Of a stretch of DNA of 64,000 nucleotides, positions 7,008-38,993 are shown piece by piece. Both the position numbers and the translations under genes were made by a program. Source of the DNA: a candidate division TM6 bacterium GW2011_GWF2_32_72 (lineage in GTDB: Bacteria; Babelota; Babeliae; Babelales; GWF2-32-72); contig LBON01000001.1 of NCBI GenBank assembly GCA_000989525.1, positions 8,096 to 72,095 of the forward strand, in the 5' to 3' direction. A model generated the notes under the pieces. The model saw only the letters and a list, made by a program, of their open reading frames with translations. It was not told the DNA's origin and made no database searches. Each line of letters begins with the position of its first letter. Position 1 is the stretch's first letter.

Positions 7008-8648
7008 TCAAATAACACGATCATGAATTAAAAGTTTTTCTGCAATTTTTTCAAATAATGGGGCAACAGTATTTGCAGCAAATAATTTTTGTTTAACTTC
7101 CGGTTCTTTTGCAAATGTCACTATAACTCTTCTATAATCACCTTTTTCAACAATTCCACAAAATGCATACCTATTTTTTGTAACATCATATTTACCATTA
7201 ACAACCATATTGGCTGTTCCTGTTTTTCCCATAACTTTATACCCATTAATTTTTGCTTTTACAGCCGTTCCTTGCAAAATTGTTTTTTCTAAAATATCTC
7301 TAATTTCCGAAATACTTTGGTCGCTATAAAGTTTTTCTTTTTTATTTTCTACCGGGTTTTCAGTCAAAATTAACTTTGGATGAACTTTATACCCACCATT
7401 TGCAACAATACAAAAAGCTTTAGCTAATTGGAGCAATGATCCAGTAATTTCATATCCAAAAGAAAGGGAAACGGGCGATCGCTTTGACCAATTATTGGGA
7501 GGATTTACAAAGCCAGATTGTTCTCCAGGAAGAGGAATATTAGTTTTTTCACCAAATCCAACCCTGGTGTAATGATCATAAAGCTTTTCACCTAACTTTT
7601 TACCCACAAATGCCATGCCTATATTATTTGAATTTTGAACAACTTCTGCAAATGTTGCTTTACCTAAAGCTATAGTTGTGCTCAAATTAATACCATCTAT
7701 TTTTACATTTTTTGAACCACCACAATCAATAATATCATCTGGTCTAATCACACCTTCTTCAAGAGCAGCCAAAGAAACAAAAACTTTCATAACAGAACCA
7801 AGCTCATACACATTAGAAATGGTTCTATTTTTTATACTTTCAACATCAACATTTGATATATCATTAGGATCAAAATCAGGAAGACTTACTAGTGCCAAAA
7901 TTTCACCATTATCAGGATTTATAATTACAGCCGAAACTTCCTTAAAGCCGAATTTTTCAAGACATTCTTTTGCTTCTTCCACGGCTAAAAACTGCAAGTC
8001 TGAATCTATAGTTAATTTAATTGGCAAAGAACTAATACCTTCTTCTTTTGTAGATTTTTTAAAATAAAACTGATTAGATCTAGCATCTTTTTCTAAAGAA
8101 ACTTTTTCTGGAGATCCTGACAATTTATCATTAAAAAGCAATTCTATTCCTGTAATTCCTACATTATCAATATTGGTCATTCCAACAATCGTCCCTACAA
8201 ATGGGCATGGATAGAACCTACCGGCTTCTTTAACAATTTTAATGTCTGATATATTAGAATCTTCTATAAGTTTTTTTTCCGCATCACTCAGTCTTCTTTT
8301 TATATAAAAAAAGTTAGGTTCAGTATTTTTTTCAAATCGCTCTGCGGCATGTGGAAAATTTTTCTGTAAAAACATTAAAGTGTGTTCCGCTGTTTCCATA
8401 CTTTTTGGAACTAAAAAGGCAGAATATATTTCTTTATTAATCGCCAACGGCCTTGTACCTGTCCGATCATAAATCAATCCCCTTGGTGGAGAAATTTCTA
8501 ACGATACATTATATTGTCGCTCGGCCAAAGATGAAAAAAAACTTTGTTGTTTAATTTGCACAATATAAAGATTGAATATCAATAAACCATACAAAACAAT
8601 AAATATAAAAAAAACAAAAGAAGTTCTAATTTTGATCGAATGATCCAT
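7008..8648 (-). CDS. ftsI: Penicillin-binding protein (PBP2/FtsI-type transpeptidase).
   Basis: N-terminal TM anchor. The three transpeptidase motifs are present: SxxK (GSVMK), SxN (NSNN) and KTG (MGKTGTA). Confidence 0.85.
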   Translation of the reverse strand: MDHSIKIRTSFVFFIFIVLYGLLIFNLYIVQIKQQSFFSSLAERQYNVSLEISPPRGLIYDRTGTRPLAINKEIYSAFLVPKSMETAEHTLMFLQKNFPHAAERFEKNTEPNFFYIKRRLSDAEKKLIEDSNISDIKIVKEAGRFYPCPFVGTIVGMTNIDNVGITGIELLFNDKLSGSPEKVSLEKDARSNQFYFKKSTKEEGISSLPIKLTIDSDLQFLAVEEAKECLEKFGFKEVSAVIINPDNGEILALVSLPDFDPNDISNVDVESIKNRTISNVYELGSVMKVFVSLAALEEGVIRPDDIIDCGGSKNVKIDGINLSTTIALGKATFAEVVQNSNNIGMAFVGKKLGEKLYDHYTRVGFGEKTNIPLPGEQSGFVNPPNNWSKRSPVSLSFGYEITGSLLQLAKAFCIVANGGYKVHPKLILTENPVENKKEKLYSDQSISEIRDILEKTILQGTAVKAKINGYKVMGKTGTANMVVNGKYDVTKNRYAFCGIVEKGDYRRVIVTFAKEPEVKQKLFAANTVAPLFEKIAEKLLIHDRVI

Positions 8649-8657
8649 ATCAGTATA

Positions 8658-8924
8658 CTACCCCAATCTTTTAACCTGATTCAAATTAAGTTTCTGCATT
8701 TTTAATTCATCTTGAGCAAACTTTTTAACATTTTTTTGACTCTTAATTTCATAAAGCTCTTCCAGCAATCTATCCTTTAAGGTGGACAAATCCTTTTTTT
8801 GATTTTCAAGTTTTTGATTTCTGTAAGACTCTTTTACAAATAAACTATTTTTATGAATGTGCAAAAAAATAAGTGATATTTGGATAAATACAAATAAAAT
8901 AAAAAAAAGAAAACGCTTTTTCAT
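8658..8924 (-). CDS. ftsL: FtsL-like small bitopic cell-division protein.
   Basis: 88 aa with a single N-terminal TM followed by a charged coiled-coil segment. It sits immediately upstream of ftsI in the same orientation, with a 9-bp gap. Confidence 0.45.
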   Translation of the reverse strand: MKKRFLFFILFVFIQISLIFLHIHKNSLFVKESYRNQKLENQKKDLSTLKDRLLEELYEIKSQKNVKKFAQDELKMQKLNLNQVKRLG

Positions 8925-8949
8925 TACCTACTCAACCTATAAAACCTTT

Positions 8950-9483
8950 TTATACTACACCCTCTATAGTCATTCTGAATGTGTTTGTTTTTTTATCCAA
9001 CCATAAAATAGAATAAAAAGACACTTCTTTATTTAATAATTCTTCTGAATCATCATAAGCCAACTCATCTACAACTCCAACATGTTCTGATAATAAAAAT
9101 GTTTGATTAAACCTAGTCGTTTGAAAAATTGGTGTTTTATCTTCTAATAAAATAATTTGTCCCTTGAAAAAACCCTCTATACTATTTGGTACAAAACCAT
9201 CTTTAGCTAATTCAGATATTATAGAATTAATATCTAACATAGGGCCATCCAAAGACATTAAATCAAAATATCCAGACTCAAAATCATTATCTTTTTTTAC
9301 AAAATTAATTGAAGCTAAACCACTGACAGATTTTAACCTTTTAATAGCTAATTTTGCACAAGTCTTACACTCAACATCATCTATCTTAATTTTAAAGGGG
9401 GTTGCAACAATTTGATTTTTTCTATTTTTTATTTTAGAAGAAACCTTTTGCTTACAACCACCCATCAAAATTAAAACAACCAT
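8950..9483 (-). CDS. Putative lipoprotein with a CxxC (HMA-like) domain. The start is uncertain.
   Basis: The internal start MVVLILMGGC gives a lipobox-like LMGGC. The IKIDDVECKTCAKLAIKRLKSVSGL segment resembles a heavy-metal-associated CxxC fold. The longer ORF starting at 9561 would overlap trxA. Confidence 0.35.
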   Translation of the reverse strand: MVVLILMGGCKQKVSSKIKNRKNQIVATPFKIKIDDVECKTCAKLAIKRLKSVSGLASINFVKKDNDFESGYFDLMSLDGPMLDINSIISELAKDGFVPNSIEGFFKGQIILLEDKTPIFQTTRFNQTFLLSEHVGVVDELAYDDSEELLNKEVSFYSILWLDKKTNTFRMTIEGVV

Positions 9484-9541
9484 CGAAACAATTAATAAAT
9501 GTTTGTTCTTGAATAAAGCTTGAATCAAGTAAAATAAATTT

Positions 9542-9865
9542 CTAACTTGCAATATGTGCATCGATCTTTTCTTTGAGCGCTTTTTTACTTAATTGACCCA
9601 TTTCTTTTTTTACAACATTTCCATTTTTAATAAAAACAAATGTAGGAATTGACGTTACTCCGTATTCTATAGCCAACTCTCGCGCCTCATCTACATTCAA
9701 TTTAGCAAATTTACACTTACCCAAAAATTCTTGTTCTAATTCTTCAAAAATGGGAGTCATCATTTGGCATGGTCCACACCAGCTGGCATAAATATCTAAA
9801 ATTATTGGACCTGAGTGAGATTTTATCTCTGAGTTGAAATTTTCTTTTGTTATTGCAACAACCAT
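9542..9865 (-). CDS. trxA: Thioredoxin.
   Basis: 107 aa with the WCGPC active site. Confidence 0.9.
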   Translation of the reverse strand: MVVAITKENFNSEIKSHSGPIILDIYASWCGPCQMMTPIFEELEQEFLGKCKFAKLNVDEARELAIEYGVTSIPTFVFIKNGNVVKKEMGQLSKKALKEKIDAHIAS

Positions 9866-9935
9866 AATTACCTTTCATTATTTTTTAGCGGTTTATAAAA
9901 GATATAATTTAGATAATTTTACACACAAGTCTAGA

Positions 9936-10655
9936 TTATTTCCCATTTGTTAAACCAACAGCCTTTTTAATTTTATAAAGAAGATCGTTTATACGTGCAA
10001 TATTATTATCTAACACTTCTTTAGCTTTTTCTGGCATTGTTTGAGCTTCTTTTTTTAACTCTTCAGATGCATTTGCAACAGCATCAAATTGATCTTTCAA
10101 ATCCAACTTTTGCTCCGCAGACATCGGCCCGGAAGTACTTTCTTTTTTAGACTTATATCCATTTATTTTCAAACTATTAATAGCTTTAAATGCCACCTTT
10201 TTTTCTGTTGGGCCAGCCATATTAATTTCATCACAGAAAATCCATCGGTTTTCTTCAATTATATATTTATTTTCTGTGCCCTTATCGTCTTTTGATACAA
10301 CTATAATTTCGACGTACTTTCTATTTTTAAATTCATGAATAACAGGTTCTGCTGGATTTTGTTGCTTAATTTCTTGAATTTCAGACAAATCTAATTCTGT
10401 AACATTATCACCAGGTAAAGTTTCTTTATTACCCGGAATTTCATAAACCGCTATTTTTTTATAAAGGCCCGGTCTTGAACTTCCTATTGAGATATTTTCT
10501 ACATTAAATTTATTACCTGCGGCATCTATAAGTTCTCCATAAAAATTTACATCTGGTTTTTCTTGCGTGTCATCTGATTGCTGAGATAAATTCATTAAGA
10601 CAAATAAAGATGGTATCAATAAATAAATTGATAACGTTTTTTTCTTCATTTTCAA
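9936..10655 (-). CDS. Secreted hypothetical protein.
   Basis: Signal peptide MKMKKKTLSIYLLIPSLFVLMNLS. No domain was recognised. It is divergent from the Cache operon. Confidence 0.45.
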   Translation of the reverse strand: MKMKKKTLSIYLLIPSLFVLMNLSQQSDDTQEKPDVNFYGELIDAAGNKFNVENISIGSSRPGLYKKIAVYEIPGNKETLPGDNVTELDLSEIQEIKQQNPAEPVIHEFKNRKYVEIIVVSKDDKGTENKYIIEENRWIFCDEINMAGPTEKKVAFKAINSLKINGYKSKKESTSGPMSAEQKLDLKDQFDAVANASEELKKEAQTMPEKAKEVLDNNIARINDLLYKIKKAVGLTNGK

Positions 10656-10812
10656 CTCCTTTAGTTTAAGAAAAATAATATCCTTTTATATTTACTATAA
10701 ATTAACAACTAGAAGCAAGTAGTAGGAAAATTTACTAAAAAGTTGTATTTATGGTCCTTGGATATATATGATGGCAAAAAATAACAAATCAATAATTATT
10801 TAGGAGATAATA

Positions 10813-12669
10813 ATGAAAAAAATAGCCATAATTTTGGCACTGTTTTTTGTTCCCAGTTTAATCTTATGCTCAGAAAGCCCAGAACAATCAACACAACTTC
10901 CCCAAAAAGAAATGGTTGATGAAAAATCAAATGAATATCTAACTCAAACACCAGAAATAGATACAACCAAAACAGATATAAATCTTCCAGAAATACCAAG
11001 TGCAGCAACAAAAATTATAGAAATCGAAACACCACAAGAAAGTATTGCTGAAACACAAGAATCACCCTTGGAACAAACAATAGAAAAAACTAAAGAAGCA
11101 ACGACTGCTTCAGAAAAAATAACATCTGAAGAAATTCAAATAACACCAAAGACGCAAGCTGTAATAGACCTAGTCAATAACGCAGTCGACTATACAATAA
11201 GTCATTCATTCACAGAATGTATGACTTATTTTAGAAACTTAACAAATGGAGACATTAACCTTCTTGTCATAGATCAAAAGGGAACCATTTTTATAGATAC
11301 AAATTATCCAAGAAGAACCTGGAAAAATATCCTTGAAGATCAAGACTCTGATGGGAAATATTATACAAAAGAAATAATCAATATAGCCTCTGAAAAAAAT
11401 GAAGGGTGGCTCACATATAGATGGGCCGGAATGACAAAATTAAGTTTTGTAAAAAAAATGATAATAAATAATAAAATGTTTATAGCCTGTTCTGGTGTGC
11501 ACCCATATACAAAAAAAGATGCAACAATGAATATGGTTAAATCAGCAATCGATTACTTACAACAACATGGAAAACAAGAAACATTTAACGCAATATCATA
11601 CCCACTTGGTCAATTCGTAGAAGGCGATATCAAAGTAGAAGCTTTTGACCTTCATGGAAAATGTTATGCCAGCGGATATGAATCATCTATGATTGGCGCA
11701 GATGTTATTGACCGGAAAGATCAAAATGGTGTTGCATATATACAAGAATATATAAAAGCCGTTGAACAAAAAAATGACAAAGAGGGAACTTGGGTTAAGC
11801 ATATGTTTAACAATGCTCCAAAAGAATCATACGTCGTACAAACCATAGACCCTCGAACCAATGAGGCATTTATTTTAGTATCAGGATACTTTCCTGAATC
11901 AACAGCCGAAAAAGTTCAAGATCTTGTAAACGCCGCAGTTGATTACATACAAAAAAACGGCCTTAAAAATGCAGACAAAATATTTGCTGATGTAAACAAA
12001 CCTTTTTTATTTGGTGATTTATATGTTTTTGTTCAAGGCCTTGATGGATGGGGATATGCCTGTGGACAATTATCAGGCTATGTAAATGTGAATCTTTTAA
12101 ACAATCAAAATGATGAATTAAAAAAAATCATAACAGATATAAACACAACCGCTGAAAATGGTGGCGGTTGGTCTGGTTACCAATTTCAAAATGGATACAA
12201 AAATTCATTCATAAGTCCTGTTGTTGATGTTGAAGGCAAAAAGGTTGTTGTTGGAGTTGGTTATTTCCCAGTCTCTAAGGAAACAACGAGTTTAATTTTA
12301 ATAAATAAAGCTGCAGAATATATGAAAAATCATGGTAAAAAAGCTATTTTACGAGAACTTGTAAAAGATAGAGGCCCTTTTGAAATTGGAGACTTATTTA
12401 TTTTTGCCTTTGACTTTAATGGCTATTGTCTAGCTTATAATGGTTATTACGATAGAATCTGGAAAAACTTCTTAGACCTTAAAGATAAAGATGGGGTGGA
12501 CGTCATAAAAGAAATGATAGAAACCGCCAAAAAGGGTGATGGATGGGTAAAATATAAAGCAGGCAACTTAATGCGAAGAATATATGTACATCCAACAGGC
12601 AAATTTGAAGATGCCTCTCAACCATTTTCAACCTCACCATTAATGCTAGCTGTAAGTTTCTATGAATAA
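10813..12669 (+). CDS. Secreted protein with four tandem sCache_2 domains, preceded by an acidic Thr/Glu/Gln-rich low-complexity stalk.
   Basis: Signal peptide MKKIAIILALFFVPSLILCS. The Cache_2 signature recurs four times (GDL[YF][IV]F..D..G..[LW]A...........[LI]..[KN]D.DG........I..A..G.GW..Y.W.N......Y[VI]...). An RBS (aggag) is present. Confidence 0.8.
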   Translation: MKKIAIILALFFVPSLILCSESPEQSTQLPQKEMVDEKSNEYLTQTPEIDTTKTDINLPEIPSAATKIIEIETPQESIAETQESPLEQTIEKTKEATTASEKITSEEIQITPKTQAVIDLVNNAVDYTISHSFTECMTYFRNLTNGDINLLVIDQKGTIFIDTNYPRRTWKNILEDQDSDGKYYTKEIINIASEKNEGWLTYRWAGMTKLSFVKKMIINNKMFIACSGVHPYTKKDATMNMVKSAIDYLQQHGKQETFNAISYPLGQFVEGDIKVEAFDLHGKCYASGYESSMIGADVIDRKDQNGVAYIQEYIKAVEQKNDKEGTWVKHMFNNAPKESYVVQTIDPRTNEAFILVSGYFPESTAEKVQDLVNAAVDYIQKNGLKNADKIFADVNKPFLFGDLYVFVQGLDGWGYACGQLSGYVNVNLLNNQNDELKKIITDINTTAENGGGWSGYQFQNGYKNSFISPVVDVEGKKVVVGVGYFPVSKETTSLILINKAAEYMKNHGKKAILRELVKDRGPFEIGDLFIFAFDFNGYCLAYNGYYDRIWKNFLDLKDKDGVDVIKEMIETAKKGDGWVKYKAGNLMRRIYVHPTGKFEDASQPFSTSPLMLAVSFYE

Positions 12670-12680
12670 AGGCTAGGCCC

Positions 12681-14123
12681 ATGAAAAACAAATTAATAAC
12701 TATTTTTTTTCTGTTACTTTTTACAAAAACTATAGAAGGAACTCTTGCTGAAGAGCAAAAGAAAACCTTAGAAACTACACTTAAAAAAATAAAAAAAAAT
12801 AAAGATGAAAAACTTCAAATAGAAGCTAAACAAAAAATCGAATCTGAAAATACAATAAAACAAAATATTAAATTTTCAGGCTTTATAAAATTAGCTGCAT
12901 ATGATGATACAAGACAAGTTTATGGTGCTAGAGACGATTATTTTCTTCTTTACCCTGAAAAAAAAGAACTTTTATGTGGCCTTGATAAAAATGCAAAGGC
13001 TCAAGGCTATATAACACCTATAGAAAGTAGACTTAGGGTCGATATAGATGGCCCTAAAATTTGGGAACTTGGCCTAAATGGTGTAATCGAAGGTGATTTT
13101 TTTGGTACAAATGAAGAAAACATTTATACACCAAGAATGCGGCTCGCTTATTTAAATATTCGGGGAAAACAATTTTCCATCTTAGCAGGACAAGAATATC
13201 ATCCACTAACACCCCTTAAAATTATTCCAGAGACCGTTTCATTTAACTCAGGTTGTCCAATGGAGCCATTTGCTCGATCACCTCAATTGCGATTTACACT
13301 ACATTTTCCAAAAATCAACGCCTTTCTTTGTCTTCTCTCTCAAAGCCCTGGTGAAGTTACCCCTGGATTTGAAGGATGTGACTGTAAATATTTAAGAGAT
13401 GCTGTTGTACCAAATATTAGCTTAGGTGCTGATACAAAAATTAAAGATTCAACATTAGGTTGTTGTTTGGACTGGAAACAAATAAGACCCAGACTTAAAA
13501 GCATCGATGAAACAAAAACTGTAAGTGAAATGTTTGCCTCAACATCTTTTTGTGCTTATACATCAATTGATATTCCCAAAGCTATCATTAAAGGCAAATT
13601 TACTTATGGAAATAACCTTCCTGAACTAAGCATGCTTGGCGGGTACGCTGTTCAAAAAATATCGGGGTGTTGTTCGGAAGAAAACACCATCGCCAACAGA
13701 TCATTTTCTTACACAGGTTTACGTGCAATTGCAATTTGGAATGATAATACACTAAAAATACATAAGCGCATTGAGCCCGGGCTATTCTGGGGATACACAA
13801 AAAACATAGGTGCAAATGACGATTTTATAATTAGCTATAAAGATTCAAACGGTGTAACCACACCATTAACTTTCACTTTGACCAATGCAACACAAATTGA
13901 CTACGTATTTAGACTTTCACCCAGAATTAAAATAAAAGAAAAACCAGTTGTATTTGGTGGAGAAATTGAATGGACAAGGGCTCGTTACGGTACAATTAAA
14001 AGTATAACAACATCAAATTCAAATAATCAGACAGTTGTAGCAACAACAGATAAAGGTTCTCTTGAAAATTTATACTCGGTTAACAATATACGATTTATTG
14101 CCACAGTCTCATACAATTTTTAA
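12681..14123 (+). CDS. Outer-membrane beta-barrel protein with an N-terminal coiled-coil segment, encoded inside the Cache operon.
   Basis: Signal peptide MKNKLITIFFLLLFTKTIEG. A Lys/Glu-rich helical segment is followed by a beta-rich body. The C-terminus is aromatic (…VSYNF). It starts 11 bp after the upstream gene and ends 15 bp before the next. Confidence 0.6.
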   Translation: MKNKLITIFFLLLFTKTIEGTLAEEQKKTLETTLKKIKKNKDEKLQIEAKQKIESENTIKQNIKFSGFIKLAAYDDTRQVYGARDDYFLLYPEKKELLCGLDKNAKAQGYITPIESRLRVDIDGPKIWELGLNGVIEGDFFGTNEENIYTPRMRLAYLNIRGKQFSILAGQEYHPLTPLKIIPETVSFNSGCPMEPFARSPQLRFTLHFPKINAFLCLLSQSPGEVTPGFEGCDCKYLRDAVVPNISLGADTKIKDSTLGCCLDWKQIRPRLKSIDETKTVSEMFASTSFCAYTSIDIPKAIIKGKFTYGNNLPELSMLGGYAVQKISGCCSEENTIANRSFSYTGLRAIAIWNDNTLKIHKRIEPGLFWGYTKNIGANDDFIISYKDSNGVTTPLTFTLTNATQIDYVFRLSPRIKIKEKPVVFGGEIEWTRARYGTIKSITTSNSNNQTVVATTDKGSLENLYSVNNIRFIATVSYNF

Positions 14124-14138
14124 ATAACAGGAATAAAT

Positions 14139-15788
14139 ATGAAAATAAAATTTTTACTTTTTAGCATATTGCCTATACAACTTTTTGCATCCGCTATCAC
14201 AGATCAAACGAATGAGCCAAATTCACAATTTTTTTTAAATAAAACGGAAATTGAAATTGATTTAGAATTAAAAAAAAAACAGGCCAAAGACTTAGTTTTA
14301 AAAGCGATAGAATTCACCAAATCACATTCTTTTGACAAATGCATGGAACAATTTAGAACCCAAGAATTTATTAAAGGGGATACTTATATTGCCGTAGGTG
14401 ATATGAATGGTCGAATAATCACACATGGAAACAATAATGAAATAATCTGGAAAGATTTTTATAACGTACAAGATGCTGAAGGAAATTATTTTATCAGAGA
14501 TGCCATTAACACAGCCGAACTTGGTGGTGGTTGGATAACATATGAATGGTTTAATGTCACAAAAAAATCATATGTCCAAAAATTTGAAAAAAATGGTGAT
14601 TCATACTTTATTTTAGCCGGTTATTACCCTCATTCAAAAAAAGATGCTGTTATTACCTTGGTTACACAAGGTGTTAAATATTTTAATGCCAATGGGAAAA
14701 CAAAAACGCAAAATCTAATCAGTTACCCGCTTGGAAGATTTGTAGAAGGTGATTTATTTTTATTTTTATTAGATTTTAATGGAGTATGTTGGGGCAATGG
14801 TAAATCCATTGGATTAATTGGAAAAAATTTAATTAACGAAAAAGATTCAAATAACAAACTTTATATACAAGAATTTATTCAATCGTTAAAAGTAAACAAA
14901 TTTGATTGGATTTCATATTCAATTAATGAAGATCCAAAAGAAGCATTCCTGGTCAAAATAACTGATGCACAAACAAAACAAGACTATATCTTGGGTTGTG
15001 AATATTCCCCCGATATAAAAAGTGATGTTGTAAAAAATTTGGTAAAAAAAGGTATACAATTTTTTAAAACCCATGGACCAATAGAAGCCTCCAAAAATTT
15101 TAGTAAAGAAGAATCAGACTATTCCCATGGATACGTTACTCTTTTTGTTTTTGATTTTAATGGTAAATGTATAGCCCATGGAGAGGAGCCCTCATTTGTA
15201 GGCAAAGATATGTTAGATATTAAAGATCAGTCTGGTGAAAAATTTGTTGAAAAAATAATAAAAAAAGCAAAAGAAAATGGTGGATGGTTAAGCTATAGAT
15301 GGAAAAATGCAAATTATTTTACATACATAGAAAAAATAACGCTTAGCAACAAAAATTATGCCATAGGAGCCGGTTTTTTTCCTATATCAAAATATGAAAC
15401 ATCACAATTGTTAATAAATTCTGCCGTAGATGCTATTAATCAAAATGGCTCTATCGCAGCCTTAAGAGATTTCACAAAAGATGAAGGTCTTTTTATCAGA
15501 GGTGATCTATTCATTTTTGCATATGATCTTAAAGGCAATTGCCTTGCATATCGCAATGAGTTTTCAAAAATATGGCAAAATTTCTTAGAAGCAAAAGATG
15601 ATAATGGAAAGAACTACGTAAAAGAAATGATAGAAGAAGCTACCTCGGGTTATGGCTGGACAGACTACTCCATAAATAATTCACCACAAAGAGCATTTGT
15701 TAAATTAATCCAACCATCAACAAAAAAAATTAAATATGATCTAGACCTAGACTTTCCGTTCATAATTGGCACAGTCTTCTATAAATAA
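14139..15788 (+). CDS. Secreted protein with four tandem sCache_2 domains (paralog 2).
   Basis: Signal peptide. There are four repeats of the Cache_2 signature, for example ...IAVGDMNGRIITHGNNNEIIWKDFYNVQDAEGNYFIRDAINTAELGGGWITYEWFNVTKKSYVQKF.... Confidence 0.8.
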   Translation: MKIKFLLFSILPIQLFASAITDQTNEPNSQFFLNKTEIEIDLELKKKQAKDLVLKAIEFTKSHSFDKCMEQFRTQEFIKGDTYIAVGDMNGRIITHGNNNEIIWKDFYNVQDAEGNYFIRDAINTAELGGGWITYEWFNVTKKSYVQKFEKNGDSYFILAGYYPHSKKDAVITLVTQGVKYFNANGKTKTQNLISYPLGRFVEGDLFLFLLDFNGVCWGNGKSIGLIGKNLINEKDSNNKLYIQEFIQSLKVNKFDWISYSINEDPKEAFLVKITDAQTKQDYILGCEYSPDIKSDVVKNLVKKGIQFFKTHGPIEASKNFSKEESDYSHGYVTLFVFDFNGKCIAHGEEPSFVGKDMLDIKDQSGEKFVEKIIKKAKENGGWLSYRWKNANYFTYIEKITLSNKNYAIGAGFFPISKYETSQLLINSAVDAINQNGSIAALRDFTKDEGLFIRGDLFIFAYDLKGNCLAYRNEFSKIWQNFLEAKDDNGKNYVKEMIEEATSGYGWTDYSINNSPQRAFVKLIQPSTKKIKYDLDLDFPFIIGTVFYK

Positions 15789-15799
15789 TTGGAGCATAA

Positions 15800-17392
15800 A
15801 TGAATAAACTAATTTTTTTAATATTACTAATAATAGTCAACCTGAATGCGAAAGCAACATCATCAAACAAAGCTTCCCCAAAAAATCCTTTTGAAACTTC
15901 AAGCCAACGAATTGAAAAGCAAGTTGATAATGCATATACAATTCTAGAAAACAATTCATTTGAAAAAGCAATATCAATGATCGGCAATCCTGAATTAATT
16001 TATGGAAAAGAAGCTGTTTTTATACTTGATTTTGAAGGAAACATAATTCAACAATACATAAACCCTCAAAATATTTGGAGCAATATATTTAATGCCCAAG
16101 ATAAATTTGGTAAAAAATATATAGAAGCTATTTTAAATCAAGCCTCACAAGACAGTGGATGGGTTTCTTATGCATGGCAGGGCACAACTAAATTTACATT
16201 TGTAAAAAAGATTGAAAAAGAAAATACTCCATACGTCATTGGCTCTGGCTTTTACCCATACACCAAATGGTCTGCTGCCGTTAATATGGTTGATAATGCA
16301 GTAAATTATTTTTACAAAAACACGACCGAAGAATCCTTTGCAGCATTTAGCTATCCAGTAGGAGAATTTATCTCTGGAGACTTATACGTTTTTGCGTTCG
16401 ACTTAGAAGGCAATTGCCTTGCTCATGGAAATGACCCCGGACTTATAGGTCAAAATCTATATGACCTTCAAGATCCTGATGGTAAATATTTTATTCGAGA
16501 TTTCATAGAAAAAGTTAAACTTGTAGATTATGCCTGGTCCGATTATATTTGGTATGGTGCCCCTAAAAAAAGTTATATAACAAAAGTAACAGATCAGATC
16601 TCCAATAAAAAGTACATTCTTGGAGTTGGATATTATCCAAACACAAACAGAGAAAAAGTCGAAGAATATGTTAAAAGAGGCTTTAGTTTCCTTAAATTCA
16701 ATGGGGTATCTCACGCCGTTAAAGAATTTCAAAATAGACTGGGAAACTATGTTTATGGTGACATATTCTTATTTGTATATGATCTGAAAGGCAATTGTCT
16801 CGCCAATGGAGAAAAACCTTCATGGATAGGTCAAAATGTATTAAGTATAGAAAATCAAGATGGTGTTAAACCTATTGAACTTCTAATTGATAAAGCACAA
16901 AGAGGTGGAGGATGGATTGACTATCAATGGAACAATGGAAACACATCTGCTTATATAGAACCTATAAACATTGGACCTGAAAAAGCCTTGATAGGCTCAA
17001 GTTTTTATCCAATATCTCAATATGAATTCGCTATATTAACAGCCAACTCAATTTATGATGAAATAGAACAGGAAGGCGAAGAAAAAGTATTTAATAAACT
17101 AGTATCTGGAAATTCAAAATTTTTACGTGGTGATTTAGATACAAGAATCTATGATATAAATGGAAACTGCCTTGCCTCAAACAATTACCAACACATATGG
17201 AAAAAATACTTTGACGCAGTTGATCAAACTGGAAAACCATATTTTATAAAAATGGCTAAAAGCGCAGAACAAGGTCTTGGCTGGATAGAAACCAAACAAC
17301 GCAATGCAACAAAAAAAACATTCACACTTCGAGCCGGAAATCGTCAATTTATGGGGTTACCGTACTTTATTACTACAAGTTTTTTTGAATAA
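15800..17392 (+). CDS. Secreted protein with four tandem sCache_2 domains (paralog 3).
   Basis: Signal peptide MNKLIFLILLIIVNLNA. Four Cache_2 repeats are present. An RBS (ggag) precedes the start, 11 bp after the upstream gene. Confidence 0.8.
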   Translation: MNKLIFLILLIIVNLNAKATSSNKASPKNPFETSSQRIEKQVDNAYTILENNSFEKAISMIGNPELIYGKEAVFILDFEGNIIQQYINPQNIWSNIFNAQDKFGKKYIEAILNQASQDSGWVSYAWQGTTKFTFVKKIEKENTPYVIGSGFYPYTKWSAAVNMVDNAVNYFYKNTTEESFAAFSYPVGEFISGDLYVFAFDLEGNCLAHGNDPGLIGQNLYDLQDPDGKYFIRDFIEKVKLVDYAWSDYIWYGAPKKSYITKVTDQISNKKYILGVGYYPNTNREKVEEYVKRGFSFLKFNGVSHAVKEFQNRLGNYVYGDIFLFVYDLKGNCLANGEKPSWIGQNVLSIENQDGVKPIELLIDKAQRGGGWIDYQWNNGNTSAYIEPINIGPEKALIGSSFYPISQYEFAILTANSIYDEIEQEGEEKVFNKLVSGNSKFLRGDLDTRIYDINGNCLASNNYQHIWKKYFDAVDQTGKPYFIKMAKSAEQGLGWIETKQRNATKKTFTLRAGNRQFMGLPYFITTSFFE

Positions 17393-17406
17393 ACCTTTAA
17401 CAAATA

Positions 17407-17444
17407 AACAAGAGTCTCTGGTTTTATTGAGACTCTTGTTTTCC
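17407..17444 (+). terminator. Rho-independent terminator closing the Cache operon.
   Basis: 12-bp stem aacaagagtctc/gagactcttgtt with a 10-nt loop and a T-rich tail. Confidence 0.7.
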
Positions 17445-17503
17445 AAGATCTCTTTAGATTCAAATTAAATTTTATGCTAAACTAAACGCATCTTAAAATA
17501 TTT

Positions 17504-19522
17504 TTGTACAAAAATGGATCCAATAATTCAATGCTTATAGAAGTCAAATTACTCAAGGGATTTTCCGAAAAATTAATTTACAAAGTGCCAGAAGACTGGG
17601 ATACAAATGATATTGAAGGTAAAATCGTAAAAGTTCCACTCAAACAGATGGTACTTCCTGCAATTGTAACAAACAAATTTGACTCACATCCCAATGAAAA
17701 AACATTTAAGATCCGCAATGCAATAGAAATTGAAAACTTTCCACATGATGCAAATTATGATTCATTAATCAAAAAACTTTCTGTCTATTACCAGATTGAA
17801 GAATTACATTTTATAAAACGCATTCGTCAATTTATGATTCAAAAAGAGGCAAAAGAAATTGATGTAATCCAACATGCTGCATTAAGTCAAAATAATTTAC
17901 AAAAAACTTCCGTTGTACAACTCACACAAGAACAGCAAGATGTTGTTGATTTTGTTGTTCCATTTATTAAAAAACCAAAATATTTGCCAACTTTAGTTCA
18001 CGGCGTAACTGGTTCTGGTAAAACTGAAATTTATAAAAGATTAATTTTAACAGCTATTGAACAAAATAAATCTGCAATTCTTTTACTTCCAGAAGTCACT
18101 CTTGCTACAAACTTTGAAAACATCTTAAGAGAGCAACTTCCAAGTAATGTAGAAATATTTGGATTTCACTCATCTACAACAATTAAACAAAAACAAATAT
18201 TGTGGCAAAACTTACTTAAAGAAAAACCTATTTTAATAATCGGCGTTCATCTCCCAACACTTTTGCCTATTGCCAACTTAGGATTAATTATCGTTGATGA
18301 AGAACACGAAGCAGGCTTTCAAGAAAAAAAACATCCAAAATTAAATTCAAAAGAAGTCGCTTTACTCAAGGCACAAGAAAACAAAATTCCAATTATTTTA
18401 GGATCTGCGACTCCTTCAATAACCTCTCTCTATAATACGGCCGAAAGAGGGTGGAAATTGTTTAAACTTCACAAACGTTTTGGTGGAAGTTTTCCAAATA
18501 TAAAAATTATAAATCTAAAAGATAAAAAACAACGTAGAAATTTTTGGATATCTCAAGAACTTGAAAATGAAATTAAAATTAAATTACAAAAAAAAGAACA
18601 AGTAATAATTTTTTTAAACAGAAGAGGATTTAGTTTTTTTGTTCAATGCAAACTCTGTGGATTTATTTTTGAATGTCCAAACTGCTCTGTAAGTCTAACT
18701 TTACATAATGACAATAACCTTAATTGTCATTATTGCGAACATCAAAAAATATTTGAAAACAAATGTCCAAAATGCCCCGCAAAAGAGCAAGACTTAATTA
18801 AAAAAGGTATTGGCACACAACAAGTTGTAACAATTTTAGAAAAACTTTTTCCCCAAGCAAAAATAGCGCGCGCCGACATGGACACAACAACTAAAAAAGC
18901 TCTTTGGAAAAAAACATTAGAAGATTTTAAATCCGGCGAAATAAATATACTTGTAGGAACCCAATCAATTACAAAAGGCTTTCACTTCCCTAAAGTTACT
19001 TTAGTTGGAATATTATGGTCAGATCTAAATTTACATTTTCCAATTTACAATGCAGCAGAAACCTGCCTTCAACAATTAATTCAAGTTGCAGGAAGAGCTG
19101 GAAGACAAAGTCAAGAAAGTACTGTGATTGCACAAGTTATGTCTGAACATTCAATTTTCAACCATTTAAATGAACAACATTATTTAAATTTTTATGAGTT
19201 GGAACTAGAAAAAAGAAAAATGGTTTCTTACCCACCATTCATTAGACTTGCAGAACTTGAATTAAAAAGCACCAATGAAAAAATATTAGAATATGATGCT
19301 CAACAAGTTGCAACCAAGTTACGCTCTATCTGTCAAGAAAAAAAACTAGATATTTTTATTTTAGGTCCTGCCAAGCCGCCTATTTATAAATTAAACAACT
19401 CGTATTCAAGAAAAATTTATATTAAATCTAAAGACATTCAAGAGATCTTTTTACTTGTTCAATTTGCACAAAACATCAAGCTTAAAAGTCAAATATTCTT
19501 TACTCCAAATCCTTTGAATTAG
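17504..19522 (+). CDS. priA: Primosomal protein N' (PriA helicase).
   Basis: Walker A (GVTGSGKTEIY) and DEEHE box are present. Cys-rich zinc fingers follow (CKLCGFIFECPNC...CHYCEH...CPKCP), then the C-terminal helicase domain. The true start may be the internal ATG at 17531. Confidence 0.9.
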   Translation: MYKNGSNNSMLIEVKLLKGFSEKLIYKVPEDWDTNDIEGKIVKVPLKQMVLPAIVTNKFDSHPNEKTFKIRNAIEIENFPHDANYDSLIKKLSVYYQIEELHFIKRIRQFMIQKEAKEIDVIQHAALSQNNLQKTSVVQLTQEQQDVVDFVVPFIKKPKYLPTLVHGVTGSGKTEIYKRLILTAIEQNKSAILLLPEVTLATNFENILREQLPSNVEIFGFHSSTTIKQKQILWQNLLKEKPILIIGVHLPTLLPIANLGLIIVDEEHEAGFQEKKHPKLNSKEVALLKAQENKIPIILGSATPSITSLYNTAERGWKLFKLHKRFGGSFPNIKIINLKDKKQRRNFWISQELENEIKIKLQKKEQVIIFLNRRGFSFFVQCKLCGFIFECPNCSVSLTLHNDNNLNCHYCEHQKIFENKCPKCPAKEQDLIKKGIGTQQVVTILEKLFPQAKIARADMDTTTKKALWKKTLEDFKSGEINILVGTQSITKGFHFPKVTLVGILWSDLNLHFPIYNAAETCLQQLIQVAGRAGRQSQESTVIAQVMSEHSIFNHLNEQHYLNFYELELEKRKMVSYPPFIRLAELELKSTNEKILEYDAQQVATKLRSICQEKKLDIFILGPAKPPIYKLNNSYSRKIYIKSKDIQEIFLLVQFAQNIKLKSQIFFTPNPLN

Positions 19523-21716
19523 ACATAATCCAATCATAAAATGGCCCTGAATTAATACCTTGGTTAATTAAAATTTCTTTTAATGGATTTAAATACAAAT
19601 TTTTAAATTCACGGTTATTTTTTAAATTATTTAATTTTTTTAAAGCTACATCAACTAAAGAACCGTTGGTTAATTTACTTAAAACAAGAGCTTTTAAAAA
19701 AGCAGGAAATTGTTGTTTTATAAAATCTTGATTTTCTGCTGCCTCTAAATTGTGCTCCAAATCAAATCTTTCTAAAAAATTAGCAAACCAATCTTCAAAA
19801 TAAGATTTACCTGGATTAATTTCTAAAAAAAAGTTCGCAAATAACCATTTTTGATCAAGCGGTAAATTATCCAAATAATTTATACAATCATCCTTTAAAT
19901 AATCCAATGCTATATTATAATTAACCAAATCCTCAATAAGATCTTTTTTTATGTCAGCCTTTTCACCGGCTTTTTTATATAAATACTTAATAATCTCTTC
20001 AAAACCTGTAGACCGAGATAAAACAACAATGGCATGAGATATCGAAAAATCTCCGACAAAAATAGCTTGCAAGACTTCACACTTGGTCAAATTATCTAAA
20101 TCATTAACTTGATTGATTAAATACGAACGCTCCGGCCAAGGATATTTTTTTAATTCATCACTATTTAAGTTAAAAACACTATTTATACTAGATTTTGGAA
20201 AATCAATCTTAAAATGCCATTGTTTAAATACCCAAGTAAAAGCAGTCTCTCTAATTTTTAATTTTATTTTTATATTTGCGAATGCATTATCTAAATTTAA
20301 TTCTGATTTATCCAATTCATATGATATAGGCACACCAAAACTAGCAACCTTTGCAAGAAACTGGATGATACCATCAGATCCAGTTAAACTTTTAATAACA
20401 GAATTCATATTATAAAAAGCTCTTTGTGCATTATATGCAGGTATTTCGCATCCTATTGATCGCTTATACTCTTGGCCAGGAATACCTGAAACAACTTCCG
20501 CCCATTCATTATGTATTTTATCAAAATCAGAAATATCTGGATGTTCTTCATAAAAAGCGATTAATCTTTTTCCATATTCATTTTTAGACGCGACTTTTTT
20601 AACTAATTCCAAATTAAAAGATTTTGTTTCAGGTAAATAAAAAATCAAATTTAAAAAATTTCTTAACGACGTTTCACCACAATCAGAAAATGTTTGGTCC
20701 CGATATTTAACTTGATAAAGATATAAAATTTCTGAAGGATAATCAGATTTAAAACGTTTTTCATAAACTCCCTGTGCAAGATCCATTTCTATAGAGCTTA
20801 ACGACTGTTTTTCAAAAAAATTAAAATCTCGCTTTCTCCTAAAATCTCTTATTTGTTCTTCATTATATTTTTCATCAATCCACTGCTGTTGTAAAACTCC
20901 ATCTTCATAAAAATTCAACCAATTATCTGAGAATAATTCTTGTTTAAGCTCATTAGGAATTAGCGTTTTATGAAATGAATTTAAGTATAATAAAATAGAT
21001 TTTTTATCCTGAACTTTATGCCATAAAAAAGTTAAAAACATATATTGCAAAGAATATTTAGGTAAACATTCAGATTCCTGATCTTTAAAAACATCTAAAA
21101 TTAATTTAATAATTTTATCAGTATCTCGACCTAAAAAAGTATTTTCTATCTTCCCGTCTTCTATAGATTTTTTAGCATTTTCCAAAGTCTTCATTTCACT
21201 TTGAATATCAACTCCTTTTTTTACCTTTAAGGCATCGATTCTATCTTCTATTAGTTGTAATGCTATTGTTGATGACTGCTTTATCTGTCTAAAAAATATT
21301 TTTTTTAGATCTTTTTTTAAAACACCTAACTTACTATCAGATGCCCACATTTTTTCTTCAACTTTATTTTGATAATTTTTAATAGCCGCTAAAAATTCAC
21401 CTATAAATTCTGGTGTAAAATAAGTCGCTGGCTTTAAAGGATGATGCGTTTCTTTTAAATCTTCCTCATTACCCAATATATAAAACATCTCATAAACTAA
21501 TTTGGTTAAATTAGACTCCGGGTCTCCATATTTATAAATATTTTTAAAATAATCATTATACGAATAAACACCGCCTTGAATTGGTGTATATTCAAAAAAA
21601 CTTTCCTTAAAAATATTTCCCAAGCCCTTAAATTGCATCGGATCTGTTATATTTGCAAAAAATTGATTTGAAAAAAGTATAAAAAAACATACTTTTTTAA
21701 CTTTAAAACAACTCAT
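19500..21716 (-). CDS. Large hypothetical protein with an N-terminal hydrophobic signal-like segment.
   Basis: 738-aa uninterrupted ORF with the Lys/Asn-rich composition of the genome. No recognisable motif was found. It overlaps the priA 3' end by 23 bp. Confidence 0.5.
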   Translation of the reverse strand: MSCFKVKKVCFFILFSNQFFANITDPMQFKGLGNIFKESFFEYTPIQGGVYSYNDYFKNIYKYGDPESNLTKLVYEMFYILGNEEDLKETHHPLKPATYFTPEFIGEFLAAIKNYQNKVEEKMWASDSKLGVLKKDLKKIFFRQIKQSSTIALQLIEDRIDALKVKKGVDIQSEMKTLENAKKSIEDGKIENTFLGRDTDKIIKLILDVFKDQESECLPKYSLQYMFLTFLWHKVQDKKSILLYLNSFHKTLIPNELKQELFSDNWLNFYEDGVLQQQWIDEKYNEEQIRDFRRKRDFNFFEKQSLSSIEMDLAQGVYEKRFKSDYPSEILYLYQVKYRDQTFSDCGETSLRNFLNLIFYLPETKSFNLELVKKVASKNEYGKRLIAFYEEHPDISDFDKIHNEWAEVVSGIPGQEYKRSIGCEIPAYNAQRAFYNMNSVIKSLTGSDGIIQFLAKVASFGVPISYELDKSELNLDNAFANIKIKLKIRETAFTWVFKQWHFKIDFPKSSINSVFNLNSDELKKYPWPERSYLINQVNDLDNLTKCEVLQAIFVGDFSISHAIVVLSRSTGFEEIIKYLYKKAGEKADIKKDLIEDLVNYNIALDYLKDDCINYLDNLPLDQKWLFANFFLEINPGKSYFEDWFANFLERFDLEHNLEAAENQDFIKQQFPAFLKALVLSKLTNGSLVDVALKKLNNLKNNREFKNLYLNPLKEILINQGINSGPFYDWIMSNSKDLE

Positions 21717-21834: not shown

Positions 21835-22596
21835 ATGATATATTGTAAAAATATTTGTATTTCATTAGCAATAATTTTTTCAACACACGTATTTGGTTCA
21901 GATTTAACCAATAAAACCAAAAAATATGATGCTATAATCTTTGATATGGATGGAACAATAGTCGATACCGAAACTATTTGGCGGAAAACGATCTCTATTC
22001 TATTATTAAAACAGGGCATTAAGATAACAGAGGAACAAGAAAAATTTACCTATGCAAAATCAAGAGATCTAAGCGCTATAGAAAAAGCTAAAGCATTAAT
22101 AAAAGATTATGATCTCAAAAATATTACAGCTGAACAAATTGTAATAGAGCGTGGCGATATTGCTGAAGAACTTTATAAAACAGGTCTTTCATATATTGAT
22201 GGATTTAAAGAATTTTTTGAAAAGGTAAAAAAACTTAATTTAAAAGTAGCAATCGCAACCGATGCTGATGAAAAATTTATCAATATAGTTAATAAATCTA
22301 TTAATATACGTACATTTTTTGGTGAATACATCTATGGACGACACAATGTTGCAAATCAATGGAAACCCTGTCCAGCAATCTTTCTTTATGCCGCCAGCCA
22401 AATTAATGTTGATCCTTCAAGATGCATAGCAATCGATGATGCACCCTGTGGAATAAAGGCATGTAATGATGCTGGCATGTTTAGCATCGGATTTAATAGC
22501 AGTGGCATCCAATCCGATGTCGTCAATGCTCGCCTTCCTGTTAATAAGTATGAAGAAATTAACTTAGAAGACTTAATTTATGAGCAAAACAAATAA
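21835..22596 (+). CDS. Secreted HAD-superfamily hydrolase (beta-phosphoglucomutase-like subfamily IA), paralog 1.
   Basis: Signal peptide (MIYCKNICISLAIIFSTHVFG) precedes HAD motif I (IIFDMDGTIVDTE). Motif IV is IAIDDAPCGIKA. An RBS (aaaggag) is present. Confidence 0.75.
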   Translation: MIYCKNICISLAIIFSTHVFGSDLTNKTKKYDAIIFDMDGTIVDTETIWRKTISILLLKQGIKITEEQEKFTYAKSRDLSAIEKAKALIKDYDLKNITAEQIVIERGDIAEELYKTGLSYIDGFKEFFEKVKKLNLKVAIATDADEKFINIVNKSINIRTFFGEYIYGRHNVANQWKPCPAIFLYAASQINVDPSRCIAIDDAPCGIKACNDAGMFSIGFNSSGIQSDVVNARLPVNKYEEINLEDLIYEQNK

Positions 22597-22689: not shown

Positions 22690-23442
22690 ATGACAAATTT
22701 TAAAAATATTGTTCTTTCATTAATAATCATTTTTTCAGCCCAACTGATTGATACAAAAACTCATCCCAAAACTCCAAAATATGAAGCTATCATTTTTGAT
22801 ATGGATGGAACAATAGCTAACACCAAGCCCATCTGGCAAAAAACATTAACAATATTTTTAAAAAGAAGGGGGATAACAATAACCAAAAAAGAAGAAGAAG
22901 CCTTATCTAAAAATAATAACGGCAAAACAGTTCCCGAAATAGCATCGGATTTAATAAAAAAATTTAATCTAAAAAATATAACACCAAACCAAGTCGTTCA
23001 AGAAAGAACAGAAATCGCAAAAAACAATTATGATAGTTCTTTAAAATTTATTATAGGATTTAAAAAATTCTTTAATAAAACAAAAAAATACCACTTAAAA
23101 GTCGCCATAGCATCAGATAGTGATACAAAATTCATAGATATAGTTAGTAAAGACCTAAATCTCAAAAAATTATTTGGAAAACATATTTATAGTCGGGAAA
23201 ATGTTAACAATAAGTGGAAACCAAACCCAGATATATACCTTTATGCAGCCAAACAATTAAACATAGAACCTAACAAATGCCTTGCCATAGATGATTCACC
23301 CAGTGGGATTAAAGCAATTAACCGAGCGGGCATGTTCAGCATAGGTATCAACACAGGCAAAAATCCCAAGGATGTGGAAGAAGCTCGTTTACCAATCAAC
23401 AAATACAGCGAAATAAATTTAGAAAAACTACTCTTTGACTGA
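22690..23442 (+). CDS. Secreted HAD-superfamily hydrolase, paralog 2.
   Basis: Signal peptide precedes IIFDMDGTIANTK...LAIDDSPSGIKA. It shares the same architecture as the upstream gene at about 45% identity. An RBS (aaggag) is present. Confidence 0.75.
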   Translation: MTNFKNIVLSLIIIFSAQLIDTKTHPKTPKYEAIIFDMDGTIANTKPIWQKTLTIFLKRRGITITKKEEEALSKNNNGKTVPEIASDLIKKFNLKNITPNQVVQERTEIAKNNYDSSLKFIIGFKKFFNKTKKYHLKVAIASDSDTKFIDIVSKDLNLKKLFGKHIYSRENVNNKWKPNPDIYLYAAKQLNIEPNKCLAIDDSPSGIKAINRAGMFSIGINTGKNPKDVEEARLPINKYSEINLEKLLFD

Positions 23443-38468: not shown

Positions 38469-38993
38469 TTATTTTCTAAGCCAACCAAAACTCCAAAAAC
38501 TTGGTTTTAAATTAATTTTCCAAAAAGAATAATTCCAAAAACTTGCAACAGAAATCCACAATAAATATGGCAAAAGCAATAAAACAACCGTTTTTGAGCG
38601 CTTATAAGACAACAACATTATAAAAACCAATGATAAAATCAAAGCAAGAACAATGTAAAAAGAAAGGCAGAACATTTGAGCTCTAAAAAAAACATAGCAC
38701 CAAGAAAAATTTAATATTGCGTTGACTGATAACAAAGCAATAATAGTCCAAAAGATTTTGTCTCTTTTAAAATTATTCCAAATTAATAAAGCGGCCCAAG
38801 AAGTCATAAAAAATATCGCCGCCCAAACAAAAGAGAAAACCCATGAGGGTGGCACACCGGCTGGCTTTGTAAGAGCGGAATACCACTTCATACCACCCTC
38901 CGTGAACAATTCTCCCAAAAGGGGAACTAACACGCCTATTAATGGAATTAAAATATAATTTGGCTTAACAACCAAGCCTTCAGATTTTTTCAT
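38469..38993 (-). CDS. tspO: TspO/MBR-family tryptophan-rich sensory (translocator) protein.
   Basis: Five-TM hydrophobic profile rich in Trp and Phe (WY..L.KP...PP.WVFSFVW...F...W) typical of TspO. Length is 174 aa. Confidence 0.7.
   Translation of the reverse strand: MKKSEGLVVKPNYILIPLIGVLVPLLGELFTEGGMKWYSALTKPAGVPPSWVFSFVWAAIFFMTSWAALLIWNNFKRDKIFWTIIALLSVNAILNFSWCYVFFRAQMFCLSFYIVLALILSLVFIMLLSYKRSKTVVLLLLPYLLWISVASFWNYSFWKINLKPSFWSFGWLRK

Follow-up and report, generated by a model that had tools for sequence, protein, structure and literature searches.

Predicted exported four-Cache proteins and a DcaP-family porin encoded side by side in a candidate division TM6 bacterium

What might a host-dependent bacterium do with twelve Cache modules that are joined neither to a transmembrane helix nor to a signaling domain? 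The question is raised by a locus of four genes in a 64-kb stretch of DNA (hereinafter, the window; coordinates refer to this whole stretch unless a locus of another genome is named) from candidate division TM6 bacterium GW2011_GWF2_32_72. The initial annotation, made from the sequence alone, described the locus as an operon of three secreted proteins, each with four Cache modules, plus a dedicated outer-membrane beta-barrel, and called the free-standing modules atypical, rightly so given that signaling modules are attached to more than 90% of Cache domains (PMC12889525). Here we show that the Cache genes of this locus belong to a family that is spread across Dependentiae and encodes a predicted exported protein of four sCache_2 modules without an output domain, usually beside a gene for BI-1. 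We found no description of this protein in the literature searched, and searches combining Dependentiae with Cache, and Cache with Bax inhibitor, returned nothing relevant. The sCache_2 domain and the DcaP family of porins, to which the barrel distantly belongs, are known already.

The four open reading frames (ORFs), all on the forward strand, encode the first Cache paralog, C1 (10813–12669, 618 aa), the porin (12681–14123, 480 aa), and the paralogs C2 (14139–15788, 549 aa) and C3 (15800–17392, 530 aa). The ORFs lie where annotated initially, with intergenic gaps of 11, 15, and 11 bp, and an AGGAG/GGAG-like ribosome-binding site is present at each of them. The closing terminator that had been placed at 17407 is recovered as well: an intrinsic terminator (17406–17445, forward strand) lies downstream of C3, with a hairpin at 17406–17441 that has a 13-bp stem (dG −18.3 kcal/mol, z = −4.5, with 0 of 200 shuffles folding equally well) and is flanked by an A-tract upstream and a U-tract downstream. 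It is missing from the output of the consensus scan because its loop is 10 nt long. On the 5′ side of C1, the consensus scan yields a weak sigma-70-like promoter, TTAACA-18-GAAAAT (10702–10731, forward strand; 9 of 12 positions), which is a candidate only, sigma-70-like sites being rarer in the window than in shuffles. Judging from this arrangement, the four genes look co-transcribed and may form one transcription unit. C2 is 100% identical to UR26_C0001G0024 of the TM6 bacterium, and the host-dependent setting that had been suspected is therefore correct.

The Cache paralogs and their ligand pockets

Pfam searches identify sCache_2 (PF17200) in all three paralogs, with E = 6e-19 for C1, 1.2e-43 for C2 (four stretches), and 8.5e-35 for C3; the respective bit scores are 68.9, 149.2, and 120.4 against a gathering cut-off of 25, with 3–4 stretches matched in each protein, and dCache_2 gives similar scores. 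Scans of C1–C3 with Pfam and NCBIfam detected no domain beyond Cache-type sensor domains and no output module; the NCBIfam matches are only partial, to the sensor domains of MctS and CtpM, both of which are carboxylate sensors. Each paralog has a single N-terminal hydrophobic segment, and beyond residue 30 the maximum KD19 hydropathy value is at most 1.26. Thus C1–C3 lack the typical context of a Cache receptor, that is, two flanking transmembrane helices and fusion to a cytoplasmic output domain. The hydropathy and domain scans support the earlier view of these 530–618 aa proteins as probably secreted or exported chains of four sCache_2 modules, without a transmembrane helix or an output domain.

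The AF2 model of C2, built from a 36-sequence alignment (pLDDT 89.9, pTM 0.84), agrees with this domain assignment. It contains four modules (residues 42–165, 167–292, 295–416, and 418–549), each consisting of a long helix followed by a five-stranded sheet, that is, the Cache fold, with its long N-terminal helix and PAS-like antiparallel sheet. In C1, the four modules are preceded by an N-terminal hydrophobic segment (ending LILC/SES) and an acidic T/E/Q-rich linker that extends to about residue 110; residues 21–125 include 18 E, 16 T, and 9 Q and carry a net charge of −14. In C3, the linker is short.

The modules belong to the same fold and sequence family as the ligand-binding domains of the sCache_2 receptors PscD (5G4Y/5G4Z), Adeh_3718 (4K08), VP0354 (4EXO), and TlpB (3UB6). 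In PscD, the carboxylate is contacted by Tyr90, His103, Tyr143, and Lys156, and the ligand is sandwiched by Trp92 and Trp145 (PMC5062169). When the module 1 profile is aligned with 4EXO (E = 1.5e-10), 3UB6, 4K08, and 5G4Y, the pocket residues fall in register, and the closest solved structures are carboxylate-bound (acetate in 4K08, pyruvate in 4EXO, propionate in 5G4Y). The equivalents of PscD Y90/H103/Y143/W145/K156 in module 1 of C2 (14262–14633, forward strand; residues 42–165) are Y83, H96, Y135, W137, and K142.

In 106 members of the family, we tallied the residues at six pocket positions, listed here by their PscD counterparts Tyr90, Trp92, His103, Tyr143, Trp145, and Lys156. Module 1 has a canonical carboxylate pocket: 87 of the 106 members carry Y at the first position, 95 F at the second, 75 H at the third, 105 Y at the fourth, 102 W at the fifth, and 95 K at the sixth. 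Module 2, which shows the highest overall conservation among the four, has a conserved variant of this pocket, in which 98 members carry Y at the first position, the second is Y/F, the third is Q (60) or H (38), and the remaining three are Y (104), S (92), and K (104). The pockets of modules 3 and 4 are degenerate, with mostly hydrophobic or variable residues. The pockets do differ between the repeats, a point that the initial annotation had proposed to check. Within the window, module 1 of C2 retains the canonical set (Y, A, H, Y, W, K), and module 2 of C3 is fully canonical (Y, F, H, Y, W, K), with the Tyr and His missing from module 1 of C3.

Compared with the sCache_2 receptors, then, module 1 and, partly, module 2 of the four-Cache family keep the Tyr, His, Tyr, Trp, and Lys of the pocket, but there are four tandem modules instead of one, two of them degenerate, and no second transmembrane helix, HAMP, MCP, kinase, or cyclase output; unlike the receptors, the four-Cache proteins are predicted to be exported and either soluble or tethered at the N-terminus. 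The sCache_heme proteins (Tll0287, DUF3365) likewise are exported proteins with the Cache fold and no signaling output, a combination that is deemed unusual in the literature (PMC12889525). However, these are single modules with a covalent c-type heme (CXXCH) and a probable redox function, whereas the window proteins have four modules and carboxylate-type pockets. We rejected a heme-Cache identity for C1–C3 given the absence of the CXXCH motif (translations read by eye); there is no DUF3365 match either.

The four-Cache family across Dependentiae

We identified at least 110 homologs of C2, mostly 530–710 aa long and 27–42% identical to C2; the listed ones carry only Cache-family Pfam domains, and those with a named organism in the source come from Dependentiae or Babeliales. 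An exhaustive profile search yielded at least 244 clusters (at 50% identity) with E ≤ 1e-30, nearly all of which are 500–700 aa long and have one full-length match. A scan of species-representative genomes retrieved 46 Dependentiae loci, with flanks of 10 kb wherever the contig reached that far, and the gene content of these loci was surveyed by tblastn. The locus search used a 12-sequence alignment and three peptide patterns that favor canonical orthologs, and the 46 genomes are all distinct from that of the window.

In all 46 loci, the Cache gene is single-copy, and it always lies at the edge of a block with the order PBP...BamA, CysS, thioredoxin, 239-aa protein, BI-1, Cache. The thioredoxin gene is upstream of Cache in nearly all of these loci, about 25 of the 46 encode a homolog of the 239-aa protein, and the gene for BI-1/TMBIM (PF01027, E = 1.7e-51) is co-directional with the Cache gene and directly upstream of it in 40, at a median distance of 37.5 bp. 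Together, the genes for BI-1 and Cache (loci L004–L049) resemble a conserved bicistronic pair; in L001, for example, they occupy 7262–7960 and 8001–9872, respectively. The window retains, at its Cache locus, genes for thioredoxin (9542–9865, reverse strand) and for the 239-aa secreted protein (9936–10655, reverse strand; no Pfam match), both divergent from C1, without BI-1; indeed, tblastn found no BI-1 homolog anywhere in the 64 kb. These two context genes mark the ancestral position of the Cache gene, which does not imply that they are part of the same system.

The presence of three Cache genes in the window is thus a departure from the rule. In a neighbor-joining tree (distances computed with numpy), C1, C2, and C3 form one clade in 82 of 100 bootstraps, a grouping to which long-branch attraction could contribute. 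Their mutual distances, 1.4–1.5, compare with a family median of 0.90, and no closer relative of any of the three was found in the libraries searched. C2 is the least diverged and the closest to the orthologs, and C1 is the most diverged, keeping 61 of the 83 family-invariant positions. By these tree and distance data, the three genes are a lineage-specific triplication followed by fast divergence, and the window therefore shows such a triplication with a porin gene recruited between C1 and C2. The twelve Cache modules counted initially are all present, but they come from the triplication of a gene that is single-copy in the 46 loci.

A similar correction applies to the acidic T/E/Q-rich stalk, which had been presented as an additional feature of C1. 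The stalk exists, but it is not special to this paralog: the segment before the first Cache module has a family median of 73 aa and exceeds 80 aa in 45 of 106 members, and the C1 stalk appears to be ancestral in kind because acidic post-signal linkers are common in the family. In many orthologs (P0074, P0054, P0022, P0004, P0050, P0062), the predicted signal cleavage site is followed by a cluster of Arg, Lys, and His and only then by the acidic linker. Sec substrates do not usually have such a cluster, which could serve in tethering or in sorting. Lipoprotein anchoring was considered as a family feature and rejected, with a strict lipobox in 7 of 106 members and the LILC of C1 being non-canonical.

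Some relatives depart from the four-module plan. P0231 (1179 aa) doubles it to eight modules, and P0232 (2099 aa; L057, 5001–11300) is a giant array of at least 13 sCache_2 stretches, again without an output domain. In P0333 (2142 aa; L055, 6001–12429), from a TARA metagenome, at least seven sCache_2 modules are fused to an autotransporter beta-domain. P0369 (WP_173086552.1; L056, 6001–8427), from Fundidesulfovibrio magnetotacticus, combines a signal peptide and two sCache_2 modules with the L-lactate permease LctP (PF02652); the fusion recurs in P0378, which was assembled independently.

A distant DcaP-family porin beside the Cache genes

As recognized initially, the second gene of the locus encodes an outer-membrane barrel that is preceded by a helical extension at the N-terminus. 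The protein consists of a putative signal peptide, a charged helical extension to about residue 57, and a barrel that spans approximately residues 62–480 and ends with a C-terminal Phe (...SYNF). The AF2 model (pLDDT 88.6) shows helices in residues 2–57 followed by the barrel, and Foldseek matches it to porins. The helices (residues 2–39 and 43–57) are modeled at pLDDT 57–70 and have a charged sequence with weak heptads; the DSSP strand list, used here in place of the model coordinates, parses ambiguously to 16–18 strands. Among porin homologs, the extension is not common in this form, exceeding 50 aa in only about 10 of 44.

Altogether, 139 homologs of the porin were found, with Dependentiae coming first (33–41% identity), followed by Bacteroidota and Ignavibacteria (about 30%). 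Some of these carry PF19577, and one is labeled by NCBI as "DcaP family trimeric outer membrane transporter". PF19577 matches 15 of the 44 aligned homologs (best E = 1.2e-9), the profile of these 44 sequences has 6EUS (6eus_A) as its only significant match in PDB (E = 2e-10), and the same chain is the top Foldseek match of the model (E = 3e-18, TM 0.77 on the target), with 16-stranded general porins next.

DcaP itself assembles as a trimer of 16-stranded barrels, has a coiled coil on the periplasmic side at its N-terminus, and favors anions by means of the constriction residues Arg114/148/150/189 (bioRxiv 10.1101/306035); growth on di- and tricarboxylates requires DcaP porins (PMC12338516). 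In the profile alignment to 6EUS, these four arginines correspond to R117, R152, R154, and R199 of the window porin and are conserved in 43, 42, 44, and 44 of the 44 homologs, respectively. The window porin shares with DcaP of Acinetobacter baumannii (PF19577, 6EUS) the predicted N-terminal helical extension and the C-terminal Phe but is only about 16% identical to it and has 10 cysteines. By its sequence and modeled fold, the barrel is a distant member of the DcaP family with all four constriction arginines and is otherwise ordinary; its interpretation as a new, dedicated channel accordingly has to be abandoned.

The cysteines of the porin deserve separate mention. The 10 residues, which include two CC pairs and a CxC, compare with a median of 3 in 43 homologs, and eight of the Cys positions are unique or shared with one homolog. 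By analogy with chlamydial outer-membrane proteins, disulfide cross-linking is conceivable.

Possible functions, and other features of the window

The explanation that we favor, tentatively, is periplasmic binding of small host carboxylates that enter via an anion-selective porin. It is proposed because the DcaP-type constriction and the canonical sCache_2 pockets both point to small organic anions. The arrangement of the genes, their domains and fold, the conserved residues, the synteny, and the triplication rest on the data above; the localization, the class of ligand, the selectivity of the porin, and any functional link between porin and Cache proteins are inferences. The porin, given that the four-arginine DcaP constriction is retained, would be an anion-selective outer-membrane channel, presumably trimeric like DcaP, that admits small host-derived carboxylates. 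The Cache proteins would bind these compounds in the periplasm via the pockets that have the sCache_2 carboxylate residues, namely, module 1 and the variant module 2 in the family at large, and module 1 of C2 and module 2 of C3 in the window. Of the two ancestral binding modules, C2 would have kept one and C3 the other, and modules 3 and 4 would serve as scaffold. As no output domain is present, these would therefore be binding, retention, or hand-off proteins rather than classical receptors; no classical output domain was found on the Dependentiae Cache proteins among the family members scanned, and a classical signaling role is unlikely. A further connection between tandem sCache_2 modules and the transport of carboxylates is the LctP fusion in Fundidesulfovibrio. 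The role proposed here resembles that of the solute-binding proteins of ABC, TRAP, and TTT systems, which are exported, soluble, bind small ligands, and have no catalytic or signaling domain. However, those proteins have a Venus flytrap fold and an adjacent importer, whereas the four-Cache proteins have a Cache/PAS-like fold, with no importer genes nearby.

Several observations weigh against this explanation. On the side of the Cache proteins, C1 has no canonical pocket in any module (module 1 carries N, L, D, Y, W, K), and each of C1–C3 has lost 17–22 of the 83 positions with a family-wide conservation of 90% or more; furthermore, the Y/H/K set is kept across sCache_2 generally, so that part of its conservation may be structural. 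On the side of transport, no inner-membrane carboxylate transporter or importer gene was found among the scanned ORFs of the 64-kb window, we know of no Cache folds that act as partners of ABC, TRAP, or TTT importers, and the conserved neighbor of the Cache gene is BI-1, neither a porin nor a transporter. The window porin itself is not matched by PF19577 even at E ≤ 10. Finally, a porin homolog lies 3′ of the Cache gene in only 2 of the 46 Dependentiae genomes (L006 and L031), a figure that comes from a biased sample because the peptide patterns favor canonical orthologs, and a Cache neighbor was found beside none of the 5 porin homologs that were looked up. The expectation that Cache and outer-membrane protein genes would form a conserved neighborhood is not upheld: their adjacency is rare, and the coupling between porin and Cache proteins may be incidental.

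The arrangement with the porin gene after the Cache gene is thus present in three lineages, the window, L006, and L031, a recurrence that speaks for the favored explanation. In L006, which comes from the same contig as L002, the Cache-linked porin is 33% identical to the window porin (E = 9e-61). L031 is similar to the left half of the window, with the thioredoxin and 239-aa genes divergent from a long-stalk Cache gene that is followed by the gene for the outer-membrane protein, within which the contig ends, and with no BI-1. In a neighbor-joining tree of the porins, the Cache-linked porins of L006 and L031 come together and the window porin sits on a separate long branch, so that the adjacency may have arisen more than once, in what is a weakly resolved part of the tree. 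The usual context of the porin gene in Dependentiae consists of RecD2, an Amidase_3 gene, a small gene, and the porin, sometimes as a tandem pair. In two Dependentiae loci (L050, 8274–11660; L052, 8455–14711), the gene for a DcaP-like porin converges with genes that encode very large secreted proteins of the Peripla_BP_6 type (1128, 457, and 1599 aa), a second case of porin genes located beside those for exported proteins with ligand-binding domains.

The frequent proximity of BI-1 suggests another explanation, one that we consider unlikely, namely, that a membrane protein, most likely BI-1/TMBIM, has the four-Cache protein as its ligand-sensing partner outside the cytoplasm. Ligand binding would then modulate this membrane protein, either in a channel or leak function or via the control of FtsH, and the adjacency to the porin in the window would be incidental. 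The co-directional BI-1 gene, immediately upstream in most of the surveyed loci, is far more conserved as a neighbor than the porin gene; the Cache protein itself lacks an output domain; and Dependentiae proteomes are without PAS domains (PMC10468136), which calls for a non-canonical route. A eukaryotic precedent is found among the fold matches in alpha2delta of voltage-gated calcium channels, an auxiliary subunit that is also extracellular, output-less, and multi-Cache and acts via a membrane partner. However, alpha2delta contains dCache_1-type modules and VWA and belongs to a different lineage, so the resemblance is architectural only. The pair of genes, moreover, sits in a long block of conserved gene order and might reflect inherited synteny of reduced genomes; BI-1 is missing from this position in 6 of the 46 loci and in the window, where the Cache genes nevertheless persist and have even multiplied; and nothing in the literature searched connects the BI-1 and Cache families.

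Less probable still is that the Cache arrays are envelope, surface, or host-facing proteins, whether structural, adhesive, or antigenically variable, in which the fold is a mere scaffold and the triplication and rapid divergence reflect the pressure of host interaction. The large distances between the paralogs and the many invariant positions they have lost fit this possibility, as do the acidic low-complexity stalks that are common in the family and the unusual Cys-richness of the window porin. Similarly, P0333 displays its sCache_2 modules as an autotransporter passenger, that is, on the cell surface, and in one cultured member of Dependentiae signal peptides are present on 44% of the coding sequences, with many putative effectors (PMC6561590). 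But, family-wide, few positions are as strongly conserved as those of the pockets in modules 1 and 2 (95–105 of 106 members), which is hard to explain for a pure scaffold, and, unlike variable surface antigens, the Cache gene is single-copy and keeps a fixed gene neighborhood in 46 species.

A conserved, dedicated two-part system, in which a specialized outer-membrane channel is obligatorily paired with soluble Cache proteins, is very unlikely and, as a conserved unit, largely refuted. In its favor are the apparent co-transcription of the four genes, the hints at carboxylates in both components, and the porin gene that follows Cache in two further lineages, but the pairing is seen in 2 of 46 loci from the Cache side and 0 of 5 from the porin side, the usual porin context is a different one (RecD2, amidase, small gene, porin), and the porin family reaches into Bacteroidota and Ignavibacteria, phyla from which no four-Cache match was named.

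Beyond the tentatively favored capture of carboxylates in the window, a broader and rather doubtful proposal is that the four-Cache protein represents a new functional class of Cache proteins, an output-less ligand-binding array that acts either as a sensing subunit of BI-1 or as a carboxylate-capturing periplasmic binding protein. In the former case, it would be a bacterial counterpart of the arrangement of alpha2delta and its channel; in the latter, with host (for example, mitochondrial) carboxylates as ligands, the window would contain a porin-coupled, subfunctionalized version with three paralogs. Dependentiae are obligate intracellular parasites with minimal genomes, and the four-Cache protein is kept at a fixed position in 46 of the 46 species genomes retrieved, despite the genome reduction. 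If its modules bind carboxylates, they would provide one of the few clues to how Dependentiae acquire or monitor host metabolites, and the known range of Cache domains would be extended from receptor inputs to free-standing binding proteins. The pairing with BI-1 and the fusions to LctP and to the autotransporter domain are concrete leads to such a wider role.

The surroundings of the locus in the window consist of housekeeping genes (PBP, thioredoxin, PriA, Ddl, NusA, IF-2, enolase, secretin, PilM), and several additional features were noticed among its ORFs. Two adjacent paralogs (51145–53136 and 53180–55216, forward strand) encode proteins of 663 and 678 aa that are 62% identical and have an N-terminal hydrophobic segment and no Pfam match; their C-termini, FGFNYHF and FGFNYRF, are similar to the endings of outer-membrane barrels. 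A 739-aa protein (26226–28445, forward strand) is a tandem Ddl–Ddl fusion, in which Dala_Dala_lig_N and Dala_Dala_lig_C are each matched twice. A 738-aa ORF on the reverse strand (19500–21716), with no family match, overlaps the end of priA by 23 bp. Two genes for HAD_2 hydrolases with near-identical domain layouts are arranged in tandem (21835–22596 and 22690–23442, forward strand), and a TspO/MBR homolog is encoded at 38469–38993 on the reverse strand.

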